Positions 323 to 21,197 of a stretch of DNA of 24,085 bases are shown one piece after another (position 1 is the stretch's first letter; each line of letters starts with the position of its first letter). Source of the stretch: a phage. The notes beneath the pieces are model-generated. The model was not told where the DNA came from. It searched no databases and worked only from the letters and a program-made list of their open reading frames with translations. A program made the translations under genes and the position numbers. The stretch lies in the NCBI GenBank assembly GCA_031441445.1, contig GCA_031441445.1_4353.1. One strand, 5' to 3'.

Positions 323-1398
323 TAATCCCCTTTCAGATAATCAGCAACACGTTTATCGAGTTCCGCCATCTGCTTAAGCGTAAGCGGATTCCCGAAACCA
401 TCTACAGATTTTACGCGAAACTCTTCCGGCGATATACCGCTGTTACGGAAAATCTTACCACGAACAGGACCGAGCGCCTGGTCCTGAAACCATGCTGGTT
501 GTTGTTTCAGGAACTCGTAATAGGTGGTGTCTGCGCTTACCTGAGTACCGCCGTCCGCACCCTTAGCCGCACGTTTTGCGCCTTTATCAAGGAAGTCGAA
601 CTCTGAACTGATTACCGGTGCAGTGGTACTTCGGCAATTAGGATGGGCTGGTGGCATCGGACCTTTACCGATTTCCCACGTCATCCCGTCTCTGACCCTG
701 CAAATCGTACTGGTGCGGCTGTCAAGCGTTGACACCCACTCGTACTTCTCGATGATGTTGTCGTTCTGGCGGTACGTCTCGTTACGGGCCTCGTTGGATA
801 CGTGGGACAGCGCGGTGCGGATTACCGTAGTCGCGTTACGTTCTGAGATGTCGGCTAGTCCACCAGCGCCAACAACATTCTTAACAATCTGCCGTGTGGT
901 TTGACCTTGCACAAAGCCCATCTTAACTCCAGTTACAAGACGTGCTACTTCCGTTTCGCCCCATCCAGACATCAGCTTGGTGAAATCAACGGGCTTGTCG
1001 CTCAATGATAATGGTTGAAACTCGGCAGCGGCCCATACCTGCTCAGCGGTAGGCGTAACAAATTCCGCGTCTACGTTGGCGGTCAGTGTCTTTACGTTCC
1101 ACTCAGCCTCGTACGCCGCCAGTTCCTTAAGGTCGTCTGTTAGCTTTGTTTGCCAGTCACCCGTAATACCGGTTAGTGCTTCTTCCAGGTCGCGTAACAG
1201 TTTATTCAGTCGCGCAGTGCTGCGACCGTCGTCACCGAATAACAGCACCTGCCGTTTGATTTCATCCCTTATCTCCTGAATGAACGGCGTGAGGTCTTTC
1301 ACCTCACCGGATGCGGTGCGTTGCAGCCATATCTGATGGCTGATTAGGGATGTAAGTAAGCTCATAGATAAACCCTGTGGCGCTAAAGTTAATAGCAT
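322..1398 (-). CDS. phage head morphogenesis protein (Mu gpF / SPP1 gp7-like minor head protein)
   Basis: 358-aa ORF directly downstream of the portal gene on the same strand; carries the family motif ...STICRVRDGMTWEIGKGPMPPAHPNCRSTT... (C-x-x-DG ... PPxHxNCR). Confidence 0.8.
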   Translation of the reverse strand: MLLTLAPQGLSMSLLTSLISHQIWLQRTASGEVKDLTPFIQEIRDEIKRQVLLFGDDGRSTARLNKLLRDLEEALTGITGDWQTKLTDDLKELAAYEAEWNVKTLTANVDAEFVTPTAEQVWAAAEFQPLSLSDKPVDFTKLMSGWGETEVARLVTGVKMGFVQGQTTRQIVKNVVGAGGLADISERNATTVIRTALSHVSNEARNETYRQNDNIIEKYEWVSTLDSRTSTICRVRDGMTWEIGKGPMPPAHPNCRSTTAPVISSEFDFLDKGAKRAAKGADGGTQVSADTTYYEFLKQQPAWFQDQALGPVRGKIFRNSGISPEEFRVKSVDGFGNPLTLKQMAELDKRVADYLKGD

Positions 1399-1434
1399 AC
1401 TATAAGAAAGCCCCTTTCGGGGCTATAGGTGAAC

Positions 1435-5304: not shown

Positions 5305-5333
5305 ACTATACTAGTGAACTATTCACGCGTCAA
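5305..5333 (-). promoter_or_regulatory. early promoter with operator-like palindrome (TTGACG-N17-TATAGT, minus strand)
   Basis: -35 is rc of 5328-5333, -10 is rc of 5305-5310; the spacer contains TGAATAGTTCACTAG, a near-perfect copy of the recurring AATAG-N4-CTATT palindrome. Confidence 0.5.
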
Positions 5334-9417: not shown

Positions 9418-9599
9418 TTAATGTACATACATGGAAACCCGACTCCGTAAAATTGCCATTCGTGTTCACGCTGTTTCTCCTTCCACCGTACCCACATCCG
9501 CTGAACCTCTGGTTCAGCGTAGCCATTGTCTTTCCGGGCCGGGGTGAACCCAAACCGGCTCCGGAACCATATTTCAAACTGCCGCAAAGTAAGTCTCAC
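9399..9599 (-). CDS. hypothetical protein (66 aa)
   Basis: ORF with apparent GTG start overlapping the upstream gene by 26 nt; start uncertain. Confidence 0.35.
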   Translation of the reverse strand: MRLTLRQFEIWFRSRFGFTPARKDNGYAEPEVQRMWVRWKEKQREHEWQFYGVGFPCMYIKCGLKK

Positions 9600-9759
9600 T
9601 TCCTGGTAACTTGAAGCCGTTTTCAGTTCTCACCACGTTCCACTCCATCCCGCCGTGGTACACAACCATGTCTTCTAAATCCAGGTCTATAATGGTTCCT
9701 ACTTTGAAGATGCCTTTAGTCAGTTCACTGTCTCTTTTTGTAACTTTAACTTCTAACAT
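9574..9759 (-). CDS. hypothetical protein (61 aa)
   Basis: ATG at 9759 with GAGGAAAA RBS, downstream of the cassette promoter at 9792-9820. Confidence 0.45.
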   Translation of the reverse strand: MLEVKVTKRDSELTKGIFKVGTIIDLDLEDMVVYHGGMEWNVVRTENGFKLPGSETYFAAV

Positions 9760-9791
9760 TTCGTTTTCCTCTGTCTCGTCTGTGTAAATGA

Positions 9792-9820
9792 ATAGTAGCC
9801 TATTCTATCTTAGTGTGCAA
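9792..9820 (-). promoter_or_regulatory. early promoter cassette (TTGCAC-N17-TACTAT, minus strand) with operator palindrome
   Basis: -35 is rc of 9815-9820, -10 is rc of 9792-9797; palindrome AATAG-TAGC-CTATT at 9791-9804 overlaps the -10; whole cassette to the ATG is homologous to the one at 11022-11090. Confidence 0.5.
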
Positions 9821-9904
9821 GTAAATTTTATTGGTGTTTGTATTGTTGCATCTCCTGCAATAGCCGCTTCGATTGTTGCGTTTGGTGAAATAGAACAAAA
9901 ATGA

Positions 9905-9934
9905 GAAAAATGATACGCTGCTGTGTAGCAGCGT
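9905..9934 (-). terminator. rho-independent terminator (minus strand)
   Basis: Perfect 8-bp stem ACGCTGCT / AGCAGCGT (9915-9922 / 9927-9934) with GTGT loop, followed on the minus strand by AUCAUUUUUCUCAUUUUUG; just after the stop of gene 9938..10177. Confidence 0.6.
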
Positions 9935-9937
9935 AGG

Positions 9938-10177
9938 TCACTCAGTAAAATCCCAAACTATTGTTACAGTATAACATAACACTTCTGGCGGCTCGGGTAA
10001 CGGCATCCAGTGCGTCACGTACTTATCGTAGTTATTCCAGAAAGGCTTTCTCCCGTCATCAGGAACGATGTAATAATCGTGTTGAACTGCGTTATTTAAC
10101 GTTTCATACACCAGGAATTCTTTATCCGTATACCCGTTACCCGGCAGCATCTCACTACACTTAATCCACTCGCCCAT
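9938..10177 (-). CDS. DUF551-like phage protein
   Basis: 79 aa with N-terminal WIKCSEMLPG and C-terminal THWMPLPEPP, as I recall for the DUF551 family (from memory, not searched); a paralog lies at 16029-16286. Confidence 0.5.
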   Translation of the reverse strand: MGEWIKCSEMLPGNGYTDKEFLVYETLNNAVQHDYYIVPDDGRKPFWNNYDKYVTHWMPLPEPPEVLCYTVTIVWDFTE

Positions 10178-10180
10178 AAA

Positions 10181-10324
10181 TCACCCCTTATTCATCACAG
10201 CTTGCGCACCAGCTTTCCACGCCCGCCACGCGAGACGCGTCTTAACGTTCAGGTACTCTTTCTTCGAACCCTTGTTAACCGGCAGACCCTCGACTACGGC
10301 CCATCGTTCGAATGCTTCTCTCAT
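10181..10324 (-). CDS. hypothetical small protein (47 aa, MREAFERWAVVEGLPVNKGSKKEYLNVKTRLAWRAWKAGAQAVMNKG)
   Basis: Unlisted ORF filling the gap between the HNH and DUF551 genes; stop lies 4 nt before the DUF551 ATG. Confidence 0.35.
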   Translation of the reverse strand: MREAFERWAVVEGLPVNKGSKKEYLNVKTRLAWRAWKAGAQAVMNKG

Positions 10325-10327
10325 AAC

Positions 10328-10684
10328 TTAGTCCTCATGATATTTTTCAAACCAGAACACAACCGGGTCAGATTTCATTTCAACCAACCCCATACGAACC
10401 AGCGCTTTGCCTTTCCCGGACGCAAGGAATTCACGACGACCATCACTGATAATTCGCCGATAATCTTCCAGGCTACCGCAATGCTTGTGCAGATTGCATG
10501 GGCGGCATGCCGGAACCATGTTGGATATATCGTCGCGTTCCTGGTGAAGCATATTTCCATCAAAACGAATGACCGGTTTTACATGGTATGCATGCCACTT
10601 TTCACCAAGTTCGCAGCCACAATAAGCACAGCGACCGCCGAACTTCATACGCAATTCTGCTCGTTGTTTTTTAGTTATAGCCAT
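10328..10684 (-). CDS. HNH endonuclease
   Basis: ORF track 10328..10696 starts at GTG; ATG at 10684 preferred. HNH signature CAYCGCEL...WHAYHVKP...NMVPACRPCNLHKH (Cys pairs, His, Asn). Confidence 0.7.
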   Translation of the reverse strand: MAITKKQRAELRMKFGGRCAYCGCELGEKWHAYHVKPVIRFDGNMLHQERDDISNMVPACRPCNLHKHCGSLEDYRRIISDGRREFLASGKGKALVRMGLVEMKSDPVVFWFEKYHED

Positions 10685-10788
10685 ACCAACCCCCACAACG
10701 CGTGCACCGCATAAACGGCGCTGACAATTAAGATAAACGGGTAATTATTCACGGCAACCTCCCTCAGAGTCGTCGGCACTGGCGCCAT
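10675..10788 (-). CDS. tiny hydrophobic peptide (37 aa, MAPVPTTLREVAVNNYPFILIVSAVYAVHALWGLVWL)
   Basis: Unlisted ORF with one predicted TM helix; overlaps the HNH start by 10 nt; no clear SD. Confidence 0.25.
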   Translation of the reverse strand: MAPVPTTLREVAVNNYPFILIVSAVYAVHALWGLVWL

Positions 10789-10805
10789 GATTCGGCGCCG
10801 TGGGT

Positions 10806-11024
10806 TTATTTAAAGTAGATAGCGAATTTCTTGTAACCCGCAGGCTCATTACGAAGCCCCTTACCGATAGCGAAACGTTGTACGTTGTTAAAATCGTTTC
10901 CATCCATACCGTCGGTGCCGAACGTAAAGAAGTTGCGTTTGTTCCCGATAATTACGCGCTCTGAAATATCGATGCCGTAAACTTGTTTGATTGCGGAAAC
11001 TACGCTTGCGGTCGCTTTGTTCAT
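10806..11024 (-). CDS. hypothetical protein (72 aa)
   Basis: ATG at 11024 with AAGGAATTTAGAAATG initiation region (same leader motif as genes at 17616 and 21003); first gene after promoter 11059-11087. Confidence 0.5.
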   Translation of the reverse strand: MNKATASVVSAIKQVYGIDISERVIIGNKRNFFTFGTDGMDGNDFNNVQRFAIGKGLRNEPAGYKKFAIYFK

Positions 11025-11058
11025 TTCTAAATTCCTTATGTCTCGTTTCGATAAGTGA

Positions 11059-11087
11059 ATAGTAACCTATTATGTTGGGGTGTGCAA
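11059..11087 (-). promoter_or_regulatory. early promoter cassette (TTGCAC-N17-TACTAT, minus strand) with operator palindrome
   Basis: -35 is rc of 11082-11087, -10 is rc of 11059-11064; palindrome AATAG-TAAC-CTATT at 11058-11071. Confidence 0.5.
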
Positions 11088-11129
11088 GAGAATAGTTACG
11101 TTGCCGTTGTGATTCTTTCGTTTCTTAAA

Positions 11130-11185
11130 AGAGTACGCAACGCAGTGGGTGGGCGTTAGCCCACCCCAGCGGAGTGAAGTACTCT
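11130..11185. other. nested inverted-repeat element in the divergent intergenic region
   Basis: Inner perfect 8-bp GC-rich stem GGGTGGGC / GCCCACCC (11147-11154 / 11159-11166, GTTA loop) nested in an outer 7-bp stem AGAGTAC / GTACTCT (11130-11136 / 11179-11185). Confidence 0.4.
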
Positions 11186-11421
11186 CTACCTTGCTCACGG
11201 CAACTATAGAAACTTTTAATTATCAGTGACTTGGATATTTAGGCGGGATTAACAATAGACTTTGACCCTTCCGAAAGCGTCAGCGGAACTACACTCAAGT
11301 GCCTAATGGCACGCGTTGCGTTCCCTGCCGCTCCGCGGTCGCTTGCGATATCTCACAAGCTCAGTGAAGCTTAGCATATTTTCAAGTAAAAGTCAATACC
11401 AGTAGCATCTTTTGTATTTTA

Positions 11422-11461
11422 GTAACTTTGCGTGGTGTTTTGGTTGCTTTTACAAAGTTAC
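11422..11461. promoter_or_regulatory. perfect 9-bp inverted repeat upstream of the AlpA-like gene
   Basis: GTAACTTTG (11422-11430) / CAAAGTTAC (11453-11461) separated by 22 bp, 41-80 nt upstream of ATG 11502. Confidence 0.35.
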
Positions 11462-11501
11462 CGCCTTATACTTCGATACATATTACACAGGAGAGCGCGA
11501 G

Positions 11502-11672
11502 ATGACTATCAATGAAGTTGCAGAATTAATCGGCGTCACCCGCCAGACGATCAATAACTGGATTAAGAGTGGAAAGTTTCCTGATTGCAGCGTTAAAGTA
11601 ATGGGGCGCCGTTTACCAGGAACATTTGACCGTAATAAAGTTGAAGCGTGGATTAAGGAGAACGTGAAATGA
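11502..11672 (+). CDS. AlpA/excisionase-like helix-turn-helix DNA-binding protein
   Basis: ORF track 11412..11672; ATG at 11502 with AGGAGA RBS preferred. 56 aa with the HTH signature MTINEVAELIGVTRQTINNWIKSGKFP. Confidence 0.65.
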   Translation: MTINEVAELIGVTRQTINNWIKSGKFPDCSVKVMGRRLPGTFDRNKVEAWIKENVK

Positions 11673-14618: not shown

Positions 14619-14637
14619 AAGGGGCTTTAAGCCCCTT
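14619..14637 (-). terminator. terminator hairpin for the XRE gene (possibly bidirectional)
   Basis: 7-bp stem AAGGGGC / GCCCCTT around loop TTTAA; the XRE stop codon (14627-14629) lies in the loop; followed on the minus strand by UCUUUUU. Confidence 0.5.
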
Positions 14638-14842
14638 CACCTAACGCCAGCCACTTGGCGTCTACTTCCAGAACTTCCGCCAGTTTGAACAGCGTTGCCG
14701 GGCGGACGTCCTGAGTTACTCCAAGTGCCAGTTGGTTAATCGCGCCCTGGGAAACGCCGGTCAGGGCCGCCAAACGGCGCTGGGAGATGCCGAGTTCTTT
14801 ACGGCGTTGTTCTACACGGGTGCCTAGTTCAGATGGTTGCAT
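14627..14842 (-). CDS. XRE-family (Cro/CI-type) helix-turn-helix transcriptional regulator
   Basis: 71 aa with HTH_3 signature GISQRRLAALTGVSQGAINQLALG; AAGGAG RBS; the only minus-strand gene inside the plus-strand module, with its own promoter and terminator. Confidence 0.8.
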   Translation of the reverse strand: MQPSELGTRVEQRRKELGISQRRLAALTGVSQGAINQLALGVTQDVRPATLFKLAEVLEVDAKWLALGEGA

Positions 14843-14872: not shown

Positions 14873-14886
14873 AATAGTACCATATT
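14873..14886. promoter_or_regulatory. operator-like site O1 overlapping the XRE promoter -10 (AATAG-TACC-ATATT) with extended -10 TGGTACTAT
   Basis: Imperfect copy of the recurring palindrome; minus-strand TGnTACTAT (rc of 14874-14882) serves as an extended -10 for the XRE gene; the -35 is poor. Confidence 0.45.
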
Positions 14887-14906
14887 AATTATTTTAGAAA
14901 AGCCCA

Positions 14907-14935
14907 TTGACATGTGAATAGTTCGCTATTATAGT
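14907..14935 (+). promoter_or_regulatory. early promoter cassette (TTGACA-N17-TATAGT) with operator palindrome
   Basis: -35 14907-14912, -10 14930-14935; palindrome AATAG-TTCG-CTATT at 14917-14930 in the spacer; drives the operon starting at 14964. Confidence 0.55.
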
Positions 14936-14963
14936 TAGCCCATACCAAACGAGAGGGGCAGAT

Positions 14964-15191
14964 ATGAACACAATCACTGGGGCCATAGCTAAAGGTTTTC
15001 GAGCAATTTTCGGCGCTCCGCAAGAAGTGTGCACAAAACATAAATTTGTACTTTCTTGCGTAGTAGGGGATGAGTTTGATGGGTTCGATAAACTTGTTGT
15101 CTGTGACCATTGCGGGCAAGAAGCTATTCAACACTCAAACGGTAAATTTGAACTAATAGACGATAGCCTTACTGAAGGCGACGGTGAGTAA
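14964..15191 (+). CDS. hypothetical small Cys/His-containing protein (possible zinc-binding)
   Basis: 75 aa with C-x3-H ... C-x2-C pattern (CTKHKF...CDHCG); GAGAGGGG RBS. Confidence 0.45.
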   Translation: MNTITGAIAKGFRAIFGAPQEVCTKHKFVLSCVVGDEFDGFDKLVVCDHCGQEAIQHSNGKFELIDDSLTEGDGE

Positions 15192-17531: not shown

Positions 17532-17560
17532 TTGACACCTGAATAGTTAGCTATTATAGT
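17532..17560 (+). promoter_or_regulatory. early promoter cassette (TTGACA-N17-TATAGT) with operator palindrome
   Basis: -35 17532-17537, -10 17555-17560; palindrome AATAG-TTAG-CTATT at 17542-17555; drives the SSB gene. Confidence 0.55.
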
Positions 17561-17615
17561 TCTAATCACTGGCCGGGCAGCTCCCGGAGTAAACTGAAAA
17601 CTGAGGAATCGAGAA

Positions 17616-18242
17616 ATGGGACTGAAATTAAATCTGCGTAAAGTAAACACTGCTTGGGTTAACGTATTCGAACGCGAAAAAGACCGTGAAAATGATGATG
17701 GTTCAATCACTAAAGGTCAGTACAGCGCGACTATTATCCTGCCGTCCGACCACGCGCAAATCGACGCGCTCTACGACACCGTTTACGCTGTAGTTGAAGA
17801 AGCGTTAGGTGCAGCCGCCGCCGAGAAGTGGATGAAGTCCAACTACGGCGAAGGTAAGCACATGGATAAATGTGCGATTAAAGACATTGCCGAGCGTGAC
17901 AATCCGTTTGAAGACTTCCCGGAAGGCTTCTACTTCAAAGCGAAGGCACAGAAGCAGCCGCTGATTGTAACCTCTAAAAAAGGTGAGACTCAGGTAGAAC
18001 AGGACTTCAATGTAGACGGTGAACAGATTGAAGGTGAACAGGTTTACAGCGGATGCTTAGCTAACGTAAGCGTTGAAATCTGGTTCAGCCAGAAATACAA
18101 AGTCCTCGGCGTTAACCTGCTGGCGATTAAATACGTTGGCGAAGGCAAAGCGTTCGGCGGTTCTAAAGTCGCTGCGAGCGTCAATGACCTGGAAGACGAC
18201 GAAGAAGATGAAGCACCGCGCCGCGAACGTCGCCGCCGCTAA
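17616..18242 (+). CDS. single-stranded DNA-binding protein, T7 gp2.5-like (putative)
   Basis: 208 aa with architecture resembling gp2.5-type SSBs (by recollection, not alignment) and an acidic C-terminal patch DLEDDEEDE followed by RRERRRR; GAGGAATCGAGAAATG initiation region. Confidence 0.5.
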   Translation: MGLKLNLRKVNTAWVNVFEREKDRENDDGSITKGQYSATIILPSDHAQIDALYDTVYAVVEEALGAAAAEKWMKSNYGEGKHMDKCAIKDIAERDNPFEDFPEGFYFKAKAQKQPLIVTSKKGETQVEQDFNVDGEQIEGEQVYSGCLANVSVEIWFSQKYKVLGVNLLAIKYVGEGKAFGGSKVAASVNDLEDDEEDEAPRRERRRR

Positions 18243-20603: not shown

Positions 20604-20698
20604 AAATTTACTGGTTTTATGAGGAAGACTGCCGAATCTGTCCGCGCTGCGGTATTGAGCATACGAAACGTGAGGGGTGTATAGATGAGTACGCCTGA
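20600..20698 (+). CDS. small Cys-rich peptide (32 aa, MKIYWFYEEDCRICPRCGIEHTKREGCIDEYA)
   Basis: Unlisted ORF with C-x2-C-x2-C ... C pattern; coupled to the upstream peptide; overlaps the VRR-NUC start. Confidence 0.25.
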   Translation: MKIYWFYEEDCRICPRCGIEHTKREGCIDEYA

Positions 20699-20972
20699 GG
20701 GGCGCATACAGAAATACGCAAAAGAGCGATTCGAGGCCCTCGGTGGCCTCGTTCGCAAGCTCTCCTACGAAGGACGTTCCGGCGCTCCCGACCTGCTGGT
20801 AATTCTCCCCGGCGGTATCATCTGGTTTGTCGAGGTTAAGAAAGACGAAAACACGAAGCCAGACCCGCACCAGTTACGTGAGCATGAGCGGATGCGTAAA
20901 CGCGGTGCAAATGTTTTTGTCGTTGGTTCGTTTAAACAGGTTGACGACCTAATAGCAAACTATTATAGTTAG
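20685..20972 (+). CDS. VRR-NUC domain nuclease
   Basis: 95 aa with PD-(D/E)XK core GAPDLLVILPGGIIWFVEVKK; GTGAGGGG RBS. Confidence 0.7.
   Translation: MSTPEGRIQKYAKERFEALGGLVRKLSYEGRSGAPDLLVILPGGIIWFVEVKKDENTKPDPHQLREHERMRKRGANVFVVGSFKQVDDLIANYYS
20941..20969 (+). promoter_or_regulatory. early promoter cassette (TTGACG-N17-TATAGT) with operator palindrome, inside the 3' end of the VRR-NUC gene
   Basis: -35 20941-20946, -10 20964-20969; palindrome AATAG-CAAA-CTATT at 20951-20964; downstream leader matches the cassette at 14930-14945. Confidence 0.5.
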
Positions 20973-21002
20973 CCATACACCAACAATATAAGGAATTGAG
21001 AA

Positions 21003-21197
21003 ATGAAACACGAATATGACCGCAAGCCAGCACGTGACATCGTACCTGGCGACATGATTTTCAACGTTAAGACCCGCCAGCCTGTTGCCGTTGATACTGT
21101 GTTCGTCGAGTCAAACGGTAAACTGGTTATCGAAGATGTAACAGGCAACGTTACCGCGTTCGGGCGTAAAGAGCTGGTACTCTACGTTAAGGATTGA
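21003..21197 (+). CDS. hypothetical protein (64 aa)
   Basis: ATG with AAGGAATTGAGAAATG initiation region, downstream of promoter 20941-20969. Confidence 0.45.
   Translation: MKHEYDRKPARDIVPGDMIFNVKTRQPVAVDTVFVESNGKLVIEDVTGNVTAFGRKELVLYVKD

Follow-up and report, generated by a model that had tools for sequence, protein, structure and literature searches.

Recurrence of a 14-bp palindrome in predicted promoters of a Kagunavirus phage and its proposed link to a 434 Cro-like protein

The DNA analyzed here is a stretch of 24,085 nucleotides (nt) from a phage (NCBI GenBank assembly GCA_031441445.1, contig GCA_031441445.1_4353.1; in the following, the window), in which a 14-bp palindrome, AATAG-N4-CTATT, recurs within predicted promoters on both strands; we discuss it as a putative operator, and a 71-amino-acid (aa) Cro-like protein encoded in the same stretch as the candidate for binding it. 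By megablast, the window belongs to the genus Kagunavirus (Guernseyvirinae), siphophages of Escherichia coli, and its matching parts are approximately 90-95% identical to phages XY1, CR01, phiEc4 and SHAK7858. The gene map was taken from the annotation of XY1. The minus strand carries head, portal and terminase genes, small genes, lysis genes and two small-gene clusters; the plus strand carries a helix-turn-helix (HTH) gene, a helicase-primase gene, a block of small genes, and genes for an exonuclease-like protein, a single-stranded DNA (ssDNA)-binding protein, a DNA polymerase and a helicase. The gene of the 71-aa protein (14627-14842), annotated in XY1 as "transcriptional repressor DicA", stands singly on the minus strand. 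An Rfam scan of the whole window gave no match.

For comparison, 80 loci around homologues of the 71-aa protein were collected from IMG/VR (cited by locus number where needed), and the complete genomes of phages Jersey, SP-031, TS6, phiEap-2 and K1G were compared as well. A pattern scan of IMG/VR for TGAATAGTNNNCTATTA was uninformative, the matches being listed mostly singly and on contigs of widely varying length, and was replaced by these protein-anchored loci.

The core element shared by the promoters described below is the palindrome AATAG-N4-CTATT, whose half-sites are one helical turn apart. Five exact copies are present in the window (at 9791, 11058, 14917, 17542 and 20951), and four copies have one mismatch (5310, 7269, 14873 and 1391); these nine sites compare with 0.64 expected, and none of 100 shuffles of the 24-kb window reached nine. 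The palindrome is the commonest inverted repeat of the form 5-Nk-5 in the window, and also in XY1, K1G and Jersey. All sites are located between open reading frames (ORFs) or, for 20951, across the final codons of an ORF. The one-mismatch copy TATAGTATGCTATT (1391-1404, minus strand), which follows a terminator between the portal and head-morphogenesis genes, is a doubtful member; its K1G orthologue has two mismatches, and it was set aside as probably not an operator. Of the eight sites that were retained, seven fall within or adjoin a predicted -35/-10 pair with a 17-nt spacer, the exception being the site at 14873 (O_rep). A generic promoter scan of the window was not enriched over shuffled sequence (20 found, 19.6 expected), and the case therefore rests on this specific promoter family and not on the generic scan.

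A sequence-only reading of the window had described two minus-strand cassettes, each running from the -35 element through a palindrome to the start codon, and had interpreted them as modular reuse of a complete expression cassette that would give co-regulated early genes. The two cassettes, C1 and C2, are real: they align without gaps over 62 nt (9765-9826 and 11032-11093; 73% identical; MAFFT), and among direct repeats with two copies theirs is the longest in the window (family D3 of the repeat search). On the minus strand they have in common CTTGCACAC, AATAGG.TACTATTCA, (A)ACGAGACA, a Shine-Dalgarno sequence and GAAATG, and both contain TTGCAC followed after 17 nt by TACTAT. The plus-strand match proposed in the same reading was also in place (CTATTATAGTTAGCCCATAC at 14926-14945 and CTATTATAGTTAGCCATAC at 20960-20978), as was a shared initiation region, AGGAATNNAGAAATG, of which there are exactly three copies, at the starts of the genes at 11024 (minus strand), 17616 (plus) and 21003 (plus), compared with 0.02 expected from 100 dinucleotide-preserving shuffles. 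The similarity extends beyond the -35/-10 hexamers. The cassettes are not an isolated pair, however, since a five-member repeat family (D1) together with inverted matches (I1, I2 and I4) ties them to plus-strand promoters at 14907, 17532 and 20941 and to a minus-strand promoter at 5333; instead of a two-copy duplication, there is a family of at least seven to eight promoters with two architectures.

Class-1 promoters have the structure TTGAC(A/G)-N4-AATAGnnnnCTATT-ATAGT; the 17-nt spacer is taken up by the palindrome, the final T of which already belongs to the -10 element as its first base. P_R (14907), P_ssb (17532), P20941 and P5333 are of this class. In class 2, with the structure TTGCAC-N10-AATAGGnTACTATT-CA, the right half-site contains the -10 element TACTAT; C1 and C2 belong here and probably also, in spite of a poor -35 element, the site 44 nt upstream of the gene of the Cro-like protein. 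The operator is centered near -18.5 in class 1 and near -12.5 in class 2, relative to the predicted promoters. A third register is found in Jersey (L002:5213), where TTGCAT-N7 precedes the palindrome and the -10 element TATTAT overlaps its right half. Pairwise identity is 45-68% within class 2 (C1, C2, P_rep) and 37-58% among the five TTGACA-type promoters; between the classes it is 24-39%, so that the palindrome is the only element common to all members. Its occurrence in three different registers argues for the palindrome as an independent module: what unifies the family is a symmetric 14-bp sequence that shifts relative to -35/-10, and not a copied cassette. Such a shifting, symmetric palindrome is the signature of a protein-binding operator.

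Cassette C1 is a class-2 promoter-operator-leader module (9757-9820, minus strand; promoter predicted from the sequence) that is conserved in its Kagunavirus orthologues. It consists of the -35 element TTGCAC (9820-9815), a 17-nt spacer, the operator AATAGGCTACTATT (9804-9791) with the -10 element TACTAT (9797-9792) in its right half, the leader box ACGAGACA (9779-9772), the Shine-Dalgarno sequence GAGG (9771-9768) and the start codon ATG (9759-9757) of a 61-aa gene. This gene (9574-9759, minus strand) matches Pfam PF25180, 'Phage antiviral trigger protein Gp54' (E=3.7e-27), and, as the first gene behind C1, is located directly under a perfect operator. C1 is directly downstream of a minus-strand terminator (9935-9914). 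Directly upstream of that terminator, at 9949-9962, there is a further dyad, degenerate in the window (two mismatches) and perfect, as AATAGGTTACTATT, in several other Kagunavirus loci.

Cassette C2 (11022-11087, minus strand; class 2; promoter predicted from sequence and alignment, orthologues compared) consists of TTGCAC (11087-11082), a 17-nt spacer, the operator AATAGGTTACTATT (11071-11058) with TACTAT (11064-11059) inside, the leader box AACGAGACA (11047-11039) and the initiation region AGGAATTTAGAAATG (11036-11022). Between C2 and the plus-strand HTH_17 gene (true start approximately 11502) there are roughly 350 bp without a convincing ORF (11090-11443), which include a GC-rich hairpin (11146-11170) with no Rfam match; about 900 bp are unannotated at the equivalent place in Jersey. 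This stretch could be an origin or encode a regulatory RNA. The HTH_17/helicase-primase operon itself has a predicted promoter without the palindrome (TTGCTT-17-TATACT, 11444-11472, plus strand; TTGATT-17-TATACT in Jersey), and at least one early operon may thus escape the repression proposed below.

The class-1 promoter P_R (14907-14954, plus strand; predicted; family D1) is divergent from the gene of the Cro-like protein, and comprises TTGACA (14907-14912), the operator AATAGTTCGCTATT (14917-14930), the -10 element TATAGT (14930-14935) and the box AACGAGA (14948-14954) ahead of a gene start at 14964. The predicted promoter of the ssDNA-binding-protein gene (Pfam Enc34_ssDNA-bd), P_ssb (17532-17618, plus strand), comprises TTGACA (17532-17537), the operator AATAGTTAGCTATT (17542-17555), TATAGT (17555-17560), a hairpin in the 5' untranslated region (17571-17589) and the initiation region AGGAATCGAGAAATG (17604-17618). 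The hairpin (GGCCGGGCAGCTCCCGGAG, plus strand) is present at the same position in Jersey, K1G, SP-031, TS6 and phiEap-2, and could be a translational operator or attenuator. Promoter P20941 (20941-21005, plus strand) overlaps the final codons of the upstream ORF (20685-20972), and comprises TTGACG (20941-20946), the operator AATAGCAAACTATT (20951-20964), TATAGT (20964-20969) and the initiation region AGGAATTGAGAAATG (20991-21005). Promoter P5333 (5305-5333, minus strand; predicted) precedes a 76-aa gene and the terminase and portal genes, with TTGACG (5333-5328), the operator AATAGTTCACTAGT (5323-5310) and TATAGT (5310-5305); the operator has one mismatch, in its right half, which is also found in another Kagunavirus locus. 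Outside the two classes, P7277 (7230-7282, minus strand) is conserved in Kagunavirus and in the genus Jerseyvirus. Its promoter, TTGACT-17-TATATT (7277-7249), has a one-mismatch palindrome, ACTAGTTGACTATT (7282-7269), over the -35 element, a right-half-like CTATT that abuts the -10 element, and the box AACGAGA (7236-7230).

Further perfect copies of AATAG-N4-CTATT were observed beyond the range of the window, in K1G (L006, 14752-14765) and in Jersey (L002, 5213-5226), between the 'immunity to superinfection' and tail assembly chaperone genes; the context in K1G is C2-like. Another dyad, GAATAA-N-TTATTC, occurs in three to four copies in the late region of SP-031 (L003, 25438-26600) and phiEap-2 (L005, 11501-12680).

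The pattern of conservation over 47 related loci separates the half-sites from their surroundings: the half-sites are conserved to the level of the -35 and -10 elements, and the central 4 bp and the flanks drift. Among 77 unique class-1 sequences (37 Kagunavirus loci and the window), the left half-site varies no more than TTGACA and TATAGT do, whereas free variation is seen in the central N4 and in the 4 nt that follow the -35 element; class-1 sequences of Jerseyvirus follow the same pattern. In the class-2 sets, the filter required TACTAT in the right half, which leaves the left half-site as the informative one. The sigma-70 polymerase makes no base-specific demand on the spacer. As judged from these alignments, the footprint is what a dimeric DNA-binding protein leaves.

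The likeness of C1 and C2 is old and kept by constraint, since there is no excess of similarity within genomes (63.0% between C1 and C2 within a genome, compared with 62.5% between genomes; orthologues are approximately 88% identical) and since the positions common to C1 and C2 are those conserved in both orthologue sets. A gene-conversion test of C1 against C2 was negative. Of the modular expression cassette that had been proposed, there remains a promoter, leader and ribosome-binding region that recurs as a module beyond the sigma-70 hexamers; its two-copy origin and its recent reuse do not.

An (A)ACGAGA box is located 11-12 nt after the -10 element in C1, C2, P_R and P7277, and also in class-2 sites of Jerseyvirus; as a bare word, AACGAGA is not enriched in the window (4 copies, 3.4 expected), and the box is notable only by its position after the -10 element and its conservation, by which it may be counted among the conserved parts of the promoter module. 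In more distant lineages, the leaders are likewise short and CA-rich and end in a purine-rich Shine-Dalgarno sequence. The initiation region occurs with more than one promoter class. In the form AGGAATTGAGAAATG it is conserved in both Kagunavirus and Jerseyvirus only at the orthologue of the gene at 21003, and at the C2 gene and the ssDNA-binding-protein gene it is found in subsets of the phages only; this patchy distribution suggests mosaic exchange or convergence.

The 71-aa protein encoded at 14627-14842 (minus strand), for which we propose the role of operator-binding repressor, is an XRE/HTH_3 protein that resembles the Cro protein of phage 434 in sequence and in predicted structure. It matches HTH_3 (PF01381) with E=3.9e-13 and 49.6 bits (cut-off 23), and in a phmmer search against PDB sequences the best relatives are 434 Cro and 434 repressor (E approximately 5e-6, residues 6-68; 1zug, 1per). 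An AlphaFold2 model (pLDDT, predicted local distance difference test, 84) comprises five helices (5-17, 21-28, 32-39, 48-57 and 62-66). With Foldseek, this model matches 434 Cro (2cro, 3cro) with template-modeling (TM) scores of 0.80-0.87 and 38-40% identity, and further matches are C.AhdI, C.BclI, SinR, HipB and P22 C2. Proteins such as 434 Cro, P22 C2, SinR and the controller (C) proteins are dimers that bind inverted repeats, and the operators of 434 are also 14 bp in length.

Two copies of the palindrome are located between the gene of the Cro-like protein and the divergent gene, 44 bp apart: the perfect copy within P_R (14917) and O_rep (14873-14886, minus strand; AATATGGTACTATT), which has AATAT in place of AATAG, a one-base mismatch conserved in nearly all Kagunavirus loci. 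O_rep overlaps a -10-like hexamer, TACTAT (14879-14874), and lies 44 nt upstream of the start codon of the gene. The layout of two dyads between this gene and P_R recurs in other lineages, with distances of 44-45, 55 and 64-65 bp, i.e. of four, five and six helical turns; examples are the window (14873-14930), L002:24281-24349, L181:2396-2474 and L192 upstream of 9962. This spacing suggests that the two dyads would be bound on the same face of the helix, possibly cooperatively.

When the loci were grouped according to the recognition-helix region of their Cro-like proteins, and palindromes of the form 4-N4-4 were counted (chance approximately 0.31 per 20 kb), three palindrome types were found to be divided among groups with different helices, one type being common to two groups. 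Loci with GVSQGAINQL (36 Kagunavirus loci) have ATAG-N4-CTAT at 5.2 copies per 20 kb, and those with GVSQSLITHL (10 Jerseyvirus loci) have it at 3.5 per 20 kb. The locus with GMTQGGIGHI (L181) has three copies of ATAC-N4-GTAT in 13 kb, and the loci with GASQGYISHL (L192 and L196) have eight copies of TTAG-N4-CTAA in 40 kb; none of the ATAG type is present in either group. These variant palindromes occupy the same spacer position in TTGACA-type promoters, e.g. TTGACA-N8-TTAGCGGGCTAA-AGT. From one phage lineage to another the hexamers are retained and the dyad is exchanged, which speaks against an element of the host polymerase and for a phage-specific operator.

From these observations, AATAG-N4-CTATT is very probably a protein-binding operator, and we consider it moderately likely that the 71-aa Cro-like protein is its binder and acts as a repressor; the hexamers are inferred to be active promoters. 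The strong promoters of the phage, a virulent one, would be ordinary host sigma-70 promoters, most of which carry the operator, either filling the spacer and touching the -10 element (class 1) or with the -10 element inside the right half-site (class 2). A dimer of the phage's own 71-aa protein would bind these operators and occlude RNA polymerase. With the protein accumulating, promoters with perfect operators would be turned down first, and those with mismatched operators (its own promoter, P5333 and P7277) would be repressed later or more weakly; the outcome would be negative autoregulation and a graded shut-down, as for lambda and 434 Cro in lytic growth. Efficient initiation or translation is the probable purpose of the short CA-rich leader with its (A)ACGAGA box and of the strong initiation region. 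As the sequence-only reading had it, the genes that follow the modules are most likely co-regulated; they cannot be summed up as early genes, because the operator, with a conserved mismatch, is also present in P5333 ahead of the packaging genes.

Several observations weigh against this proposal. A simple repressor would lower expression of the packaging genes too, unless the conserved mismatch in the P5333 operator matters. Between Kagunavirus and Jerseyvirus, the identity of the Cro-like proteins is no more than 48% and the recognition helices are different (QGAINQ and QSLITH, respectively), yet both genera have AATAG-N4-CTATT; since two different helices share the ATAG type, the match of helix and operator is not one-to-one, and an attempt to derive a residue-to-base code from the recognition helices gave no clean one-to-one rule. 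No clear enriched palindrome was found in the lineages with GWSQGCFGHL, GVTQSAISHL and GFSQGRVSHI. The flanks outside the 5+5 core are asymmetric (tGAATAGT...CTATTAt). In the lineages compared, all features vary along with phylogeny, so that another lineage-specific protein could be the binder; the gene of the HTH_17 protein, in particular, accompanies the AATAG type, being found in loci of Kagunavirus and Jerseyvirus and in no others.

The operator might accordingly be bound by another phage protein, either the 56-aa HTH_17 protein (11502-11672, plus strand) or the product of the 76-aa gene that follows P5333, or else an unrecognized one, and the target of the Cro-like protein would be a different one; we consider this unlikely. 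Homologues of the HTH_17 protein are found in exactly the two genera with AATAG-N4-CTATT and in no other lineage (63-100% in most Kagunavirus loci, 66-79% in Jerseyvirus), it is better conserved between the genera than the Cro-like protein, which fits an identical operator, and its gene is approximately 430 bp from the C2 operator. However, it is excisionase/Xis-like (PDB 4j2n, E=0.08; phrog_66), and members of this family bind as monomers or head-to-tail arrays and are not known to bind 14-bp dyads; in addition, spacer palindromes of the same geometry are present in L181, L192 and L196, in which no HTH_17 homologue was detected even at E<10, and its own predicted promoter has no palindrome. 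The 76-aa protein has no match to a DNA-binding domain. Binding by a transcription factor that the hosts Escherichia and Salmonella have in common would explain why the same palindrome is present in E. coli and Salmonella phages in spite of the divergent Cro-like proteins, but the lineage-specific palindromes track the phage lineage, and such a factor is very improbable; the consensus sites of CRP (TGTGA-N6-TCACA) and of the ARG-box (TGAAT-N4-ATTCA), compared by eye, misfit in half-sites and spacing. It is likewise hardly credible that the repeats simply reflect an expression cassette recently duplicated or recombined, without a regulator of its own: the 73% identity of C1 and C2 over 62 nt speaks for it, as does the initiation region at three genes, found at two of them in phage subsets only, which suggests mosaic exchange, but within-genome similarity is not in excess, the shared positions are those conserved among orthologues, modules are present in both genera, and the palindrome also occurs in the otherwise unrelated promoters of the other class.

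An intrinsic promoter element, i.e. a promoter of a phage RNA polymerase or a spacer sequence that tunes the host RNA polymerase, is quite unlikely in our view. It was the interpretation given to seven PHIRE copies with the consensus tgAATAGTa-ccTATTat-T, labeled as promoters of a phage RNA polymerase (PMC9825357), and it would agree with the asymmetric outer flanks and with the overlap of the right half-site and the -10 element, by which part of the conservation is promoter conservation. No RNA polymerase is annotated, however, among the 52 coding sequences of K1G (whole genome) or the 51 features of the matching 24.5 kb of XY1, as far as these annotations go; the sites lie within sigma-70 hexamer pairs that are close to consensus and spaced by 17 nt, and are not an asymmetric sequence that replaces hexamers; the motif is symmetric and occurs in three registers; and related lineages combine the same hexamers with a different palindrome, unlike an element of the host polymerase. 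The (A)ACGAGA box also invites comparison with the AACGAT element of lambda, and the spacer palindrome and box together might be a loading site for a processive antiterminator of the Q/AlpA type that reads through many terminators, an explanation to which we give very little credence. The binding elements of Q and AlpA are located between -35 and -10 and act with a conserved, initially transcribed element (PMC9371919); class-1 palindromes are likewise placed, the conserved box after the -10 element resembles CACGAT of AlpA, and terminators separate the operons. AlpA binds as a single molecule to a 6-bp asymmetric element and requires an N-terminal ring domain (PMC9371919), and the site here is, in contrast, a symmetric dyad; the (A)ACGAGA box does not end in the T by which a -10-like pause element is defined, and is not enriched as a word; and no Q/AlpA-like protein with an RNA-exit-channel ring domain was recognized, the HTH_17 protein having only 56 aa, although many small ORFs are uncharacterized. 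It is similarly improbable that dyad and box are a loading platform instead of a repressor site, at which a small unrecognized phage factor modifies the host RNA polymerase at nearly every phage promoter, as a processivity or timing device that would be Q/AlpA-like or otherwise new. If true, a virulent siphophage could run its temporal program without a polymerase, a sigma factor or a known antiterminator of its own.

Phages of Kagunavirus and Jerseyvirus are widely isolated as candidates for therapy and biocontrol, and the gene of the Cro-like protein is annotated in these genomes as "transcriptional repressor", "DicA" or "cro", a label that can be taken as a hint of a temperate lifestyle. 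If the repressor-operator proposal is true, the annotation would be corrected to a circuit of a Cro-like protein with operators inside most strong promoters, which would explain how virulent phages may time and limit transcription with the host polymerase alone; engineering would also gain a small collection of strong sigma-70 promoters that can be repressed and that come in natural variants of specificity (ATAG, ATAC and TTAG). The gain is for the annotation and biology of one phage subfamily, and no new principle is involved.

The motif has been seen before. In the report on the Kagunavirus phage fBC-Eco01, seven PHIRE sites were assigned to a phage-encoded RNA polymerase (PMC9825357), and the motif is the same as the palindrome described here, at corresponding places in the genome; in the report on VB_EcoS-Golestan, seven PHIRE 'phage-specific promoters' are given, and the comparison with these extends to their count (PMC7203180). 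The words repressor and palindrome are absent from the main texts of both papers (PMC9825357, PMC7203180), which accordingly take up neither the dyad symmetry nor the position among sigma-70 hexamers nor the Cro-like gene nearby. In the literature covered, which is incomplete, no paper was found in which the motif is considered an operator or is connected with the Cro-like gene, and for transcriptomics or operators of Guernseyvirinae only genome descriptions were found. The type of switch proposed is a familiar one.

Among known systems, the C proteins C.BclI and C.AhdI, with their C-boxes, are top structural matches of the 71-aa model, and like the protein proposed here they are small XRE dimers on inverted repeats that overlap a strong promoter of an incoming element, with a role in timing and autoregulation. 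The anti-CRISPR-associated (Aca) repressors can be likened to it along with the C proteins. Both of these control a single operon, in contrast to the genome-wide promoter set here, and C proteins activate at low concentration, of which there is no sign here. In its proposed role, the protein would resemble lambda Cro, a weak repressor that is made from an early transcript and throttles the strong early promoters (P_L, P_R) and its own synthesis; the fold of lambda Cro is not HTH_3, however, its operators are 17 bp, and it has two target regions, whereas the operators described here are also present at a promoter ahead of packaging genes.

The closest likeness is to the 434 system. The 71-aa protein and 434 Cro have the same length (71 aa) and the same five-helix HTH_3 fold, and 434 proteins are its best sequence relatives in the PDB; both systems have a 14-bp dyad over core promoter elements, and graded operators in the divergent region beside the regulator gene. 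They differ in that no CI partner, integrase or lysogeny module is annotated in the relatives (K1G genome and matching XY1 region), and related phages are described as lytic (PMC7203180, PMC9825357). Binding by the 71-aa protein is, in contrast to 434, proposed here from sequence comparison. The half-site arrangement is AATAG-N4 here and ACAA-N6 in 434, and the operators of 434 form two clusters of three (O_R1-3 and O_L1-3), whereas those described here are distributed over at least seven promoters across more than 15 kb.

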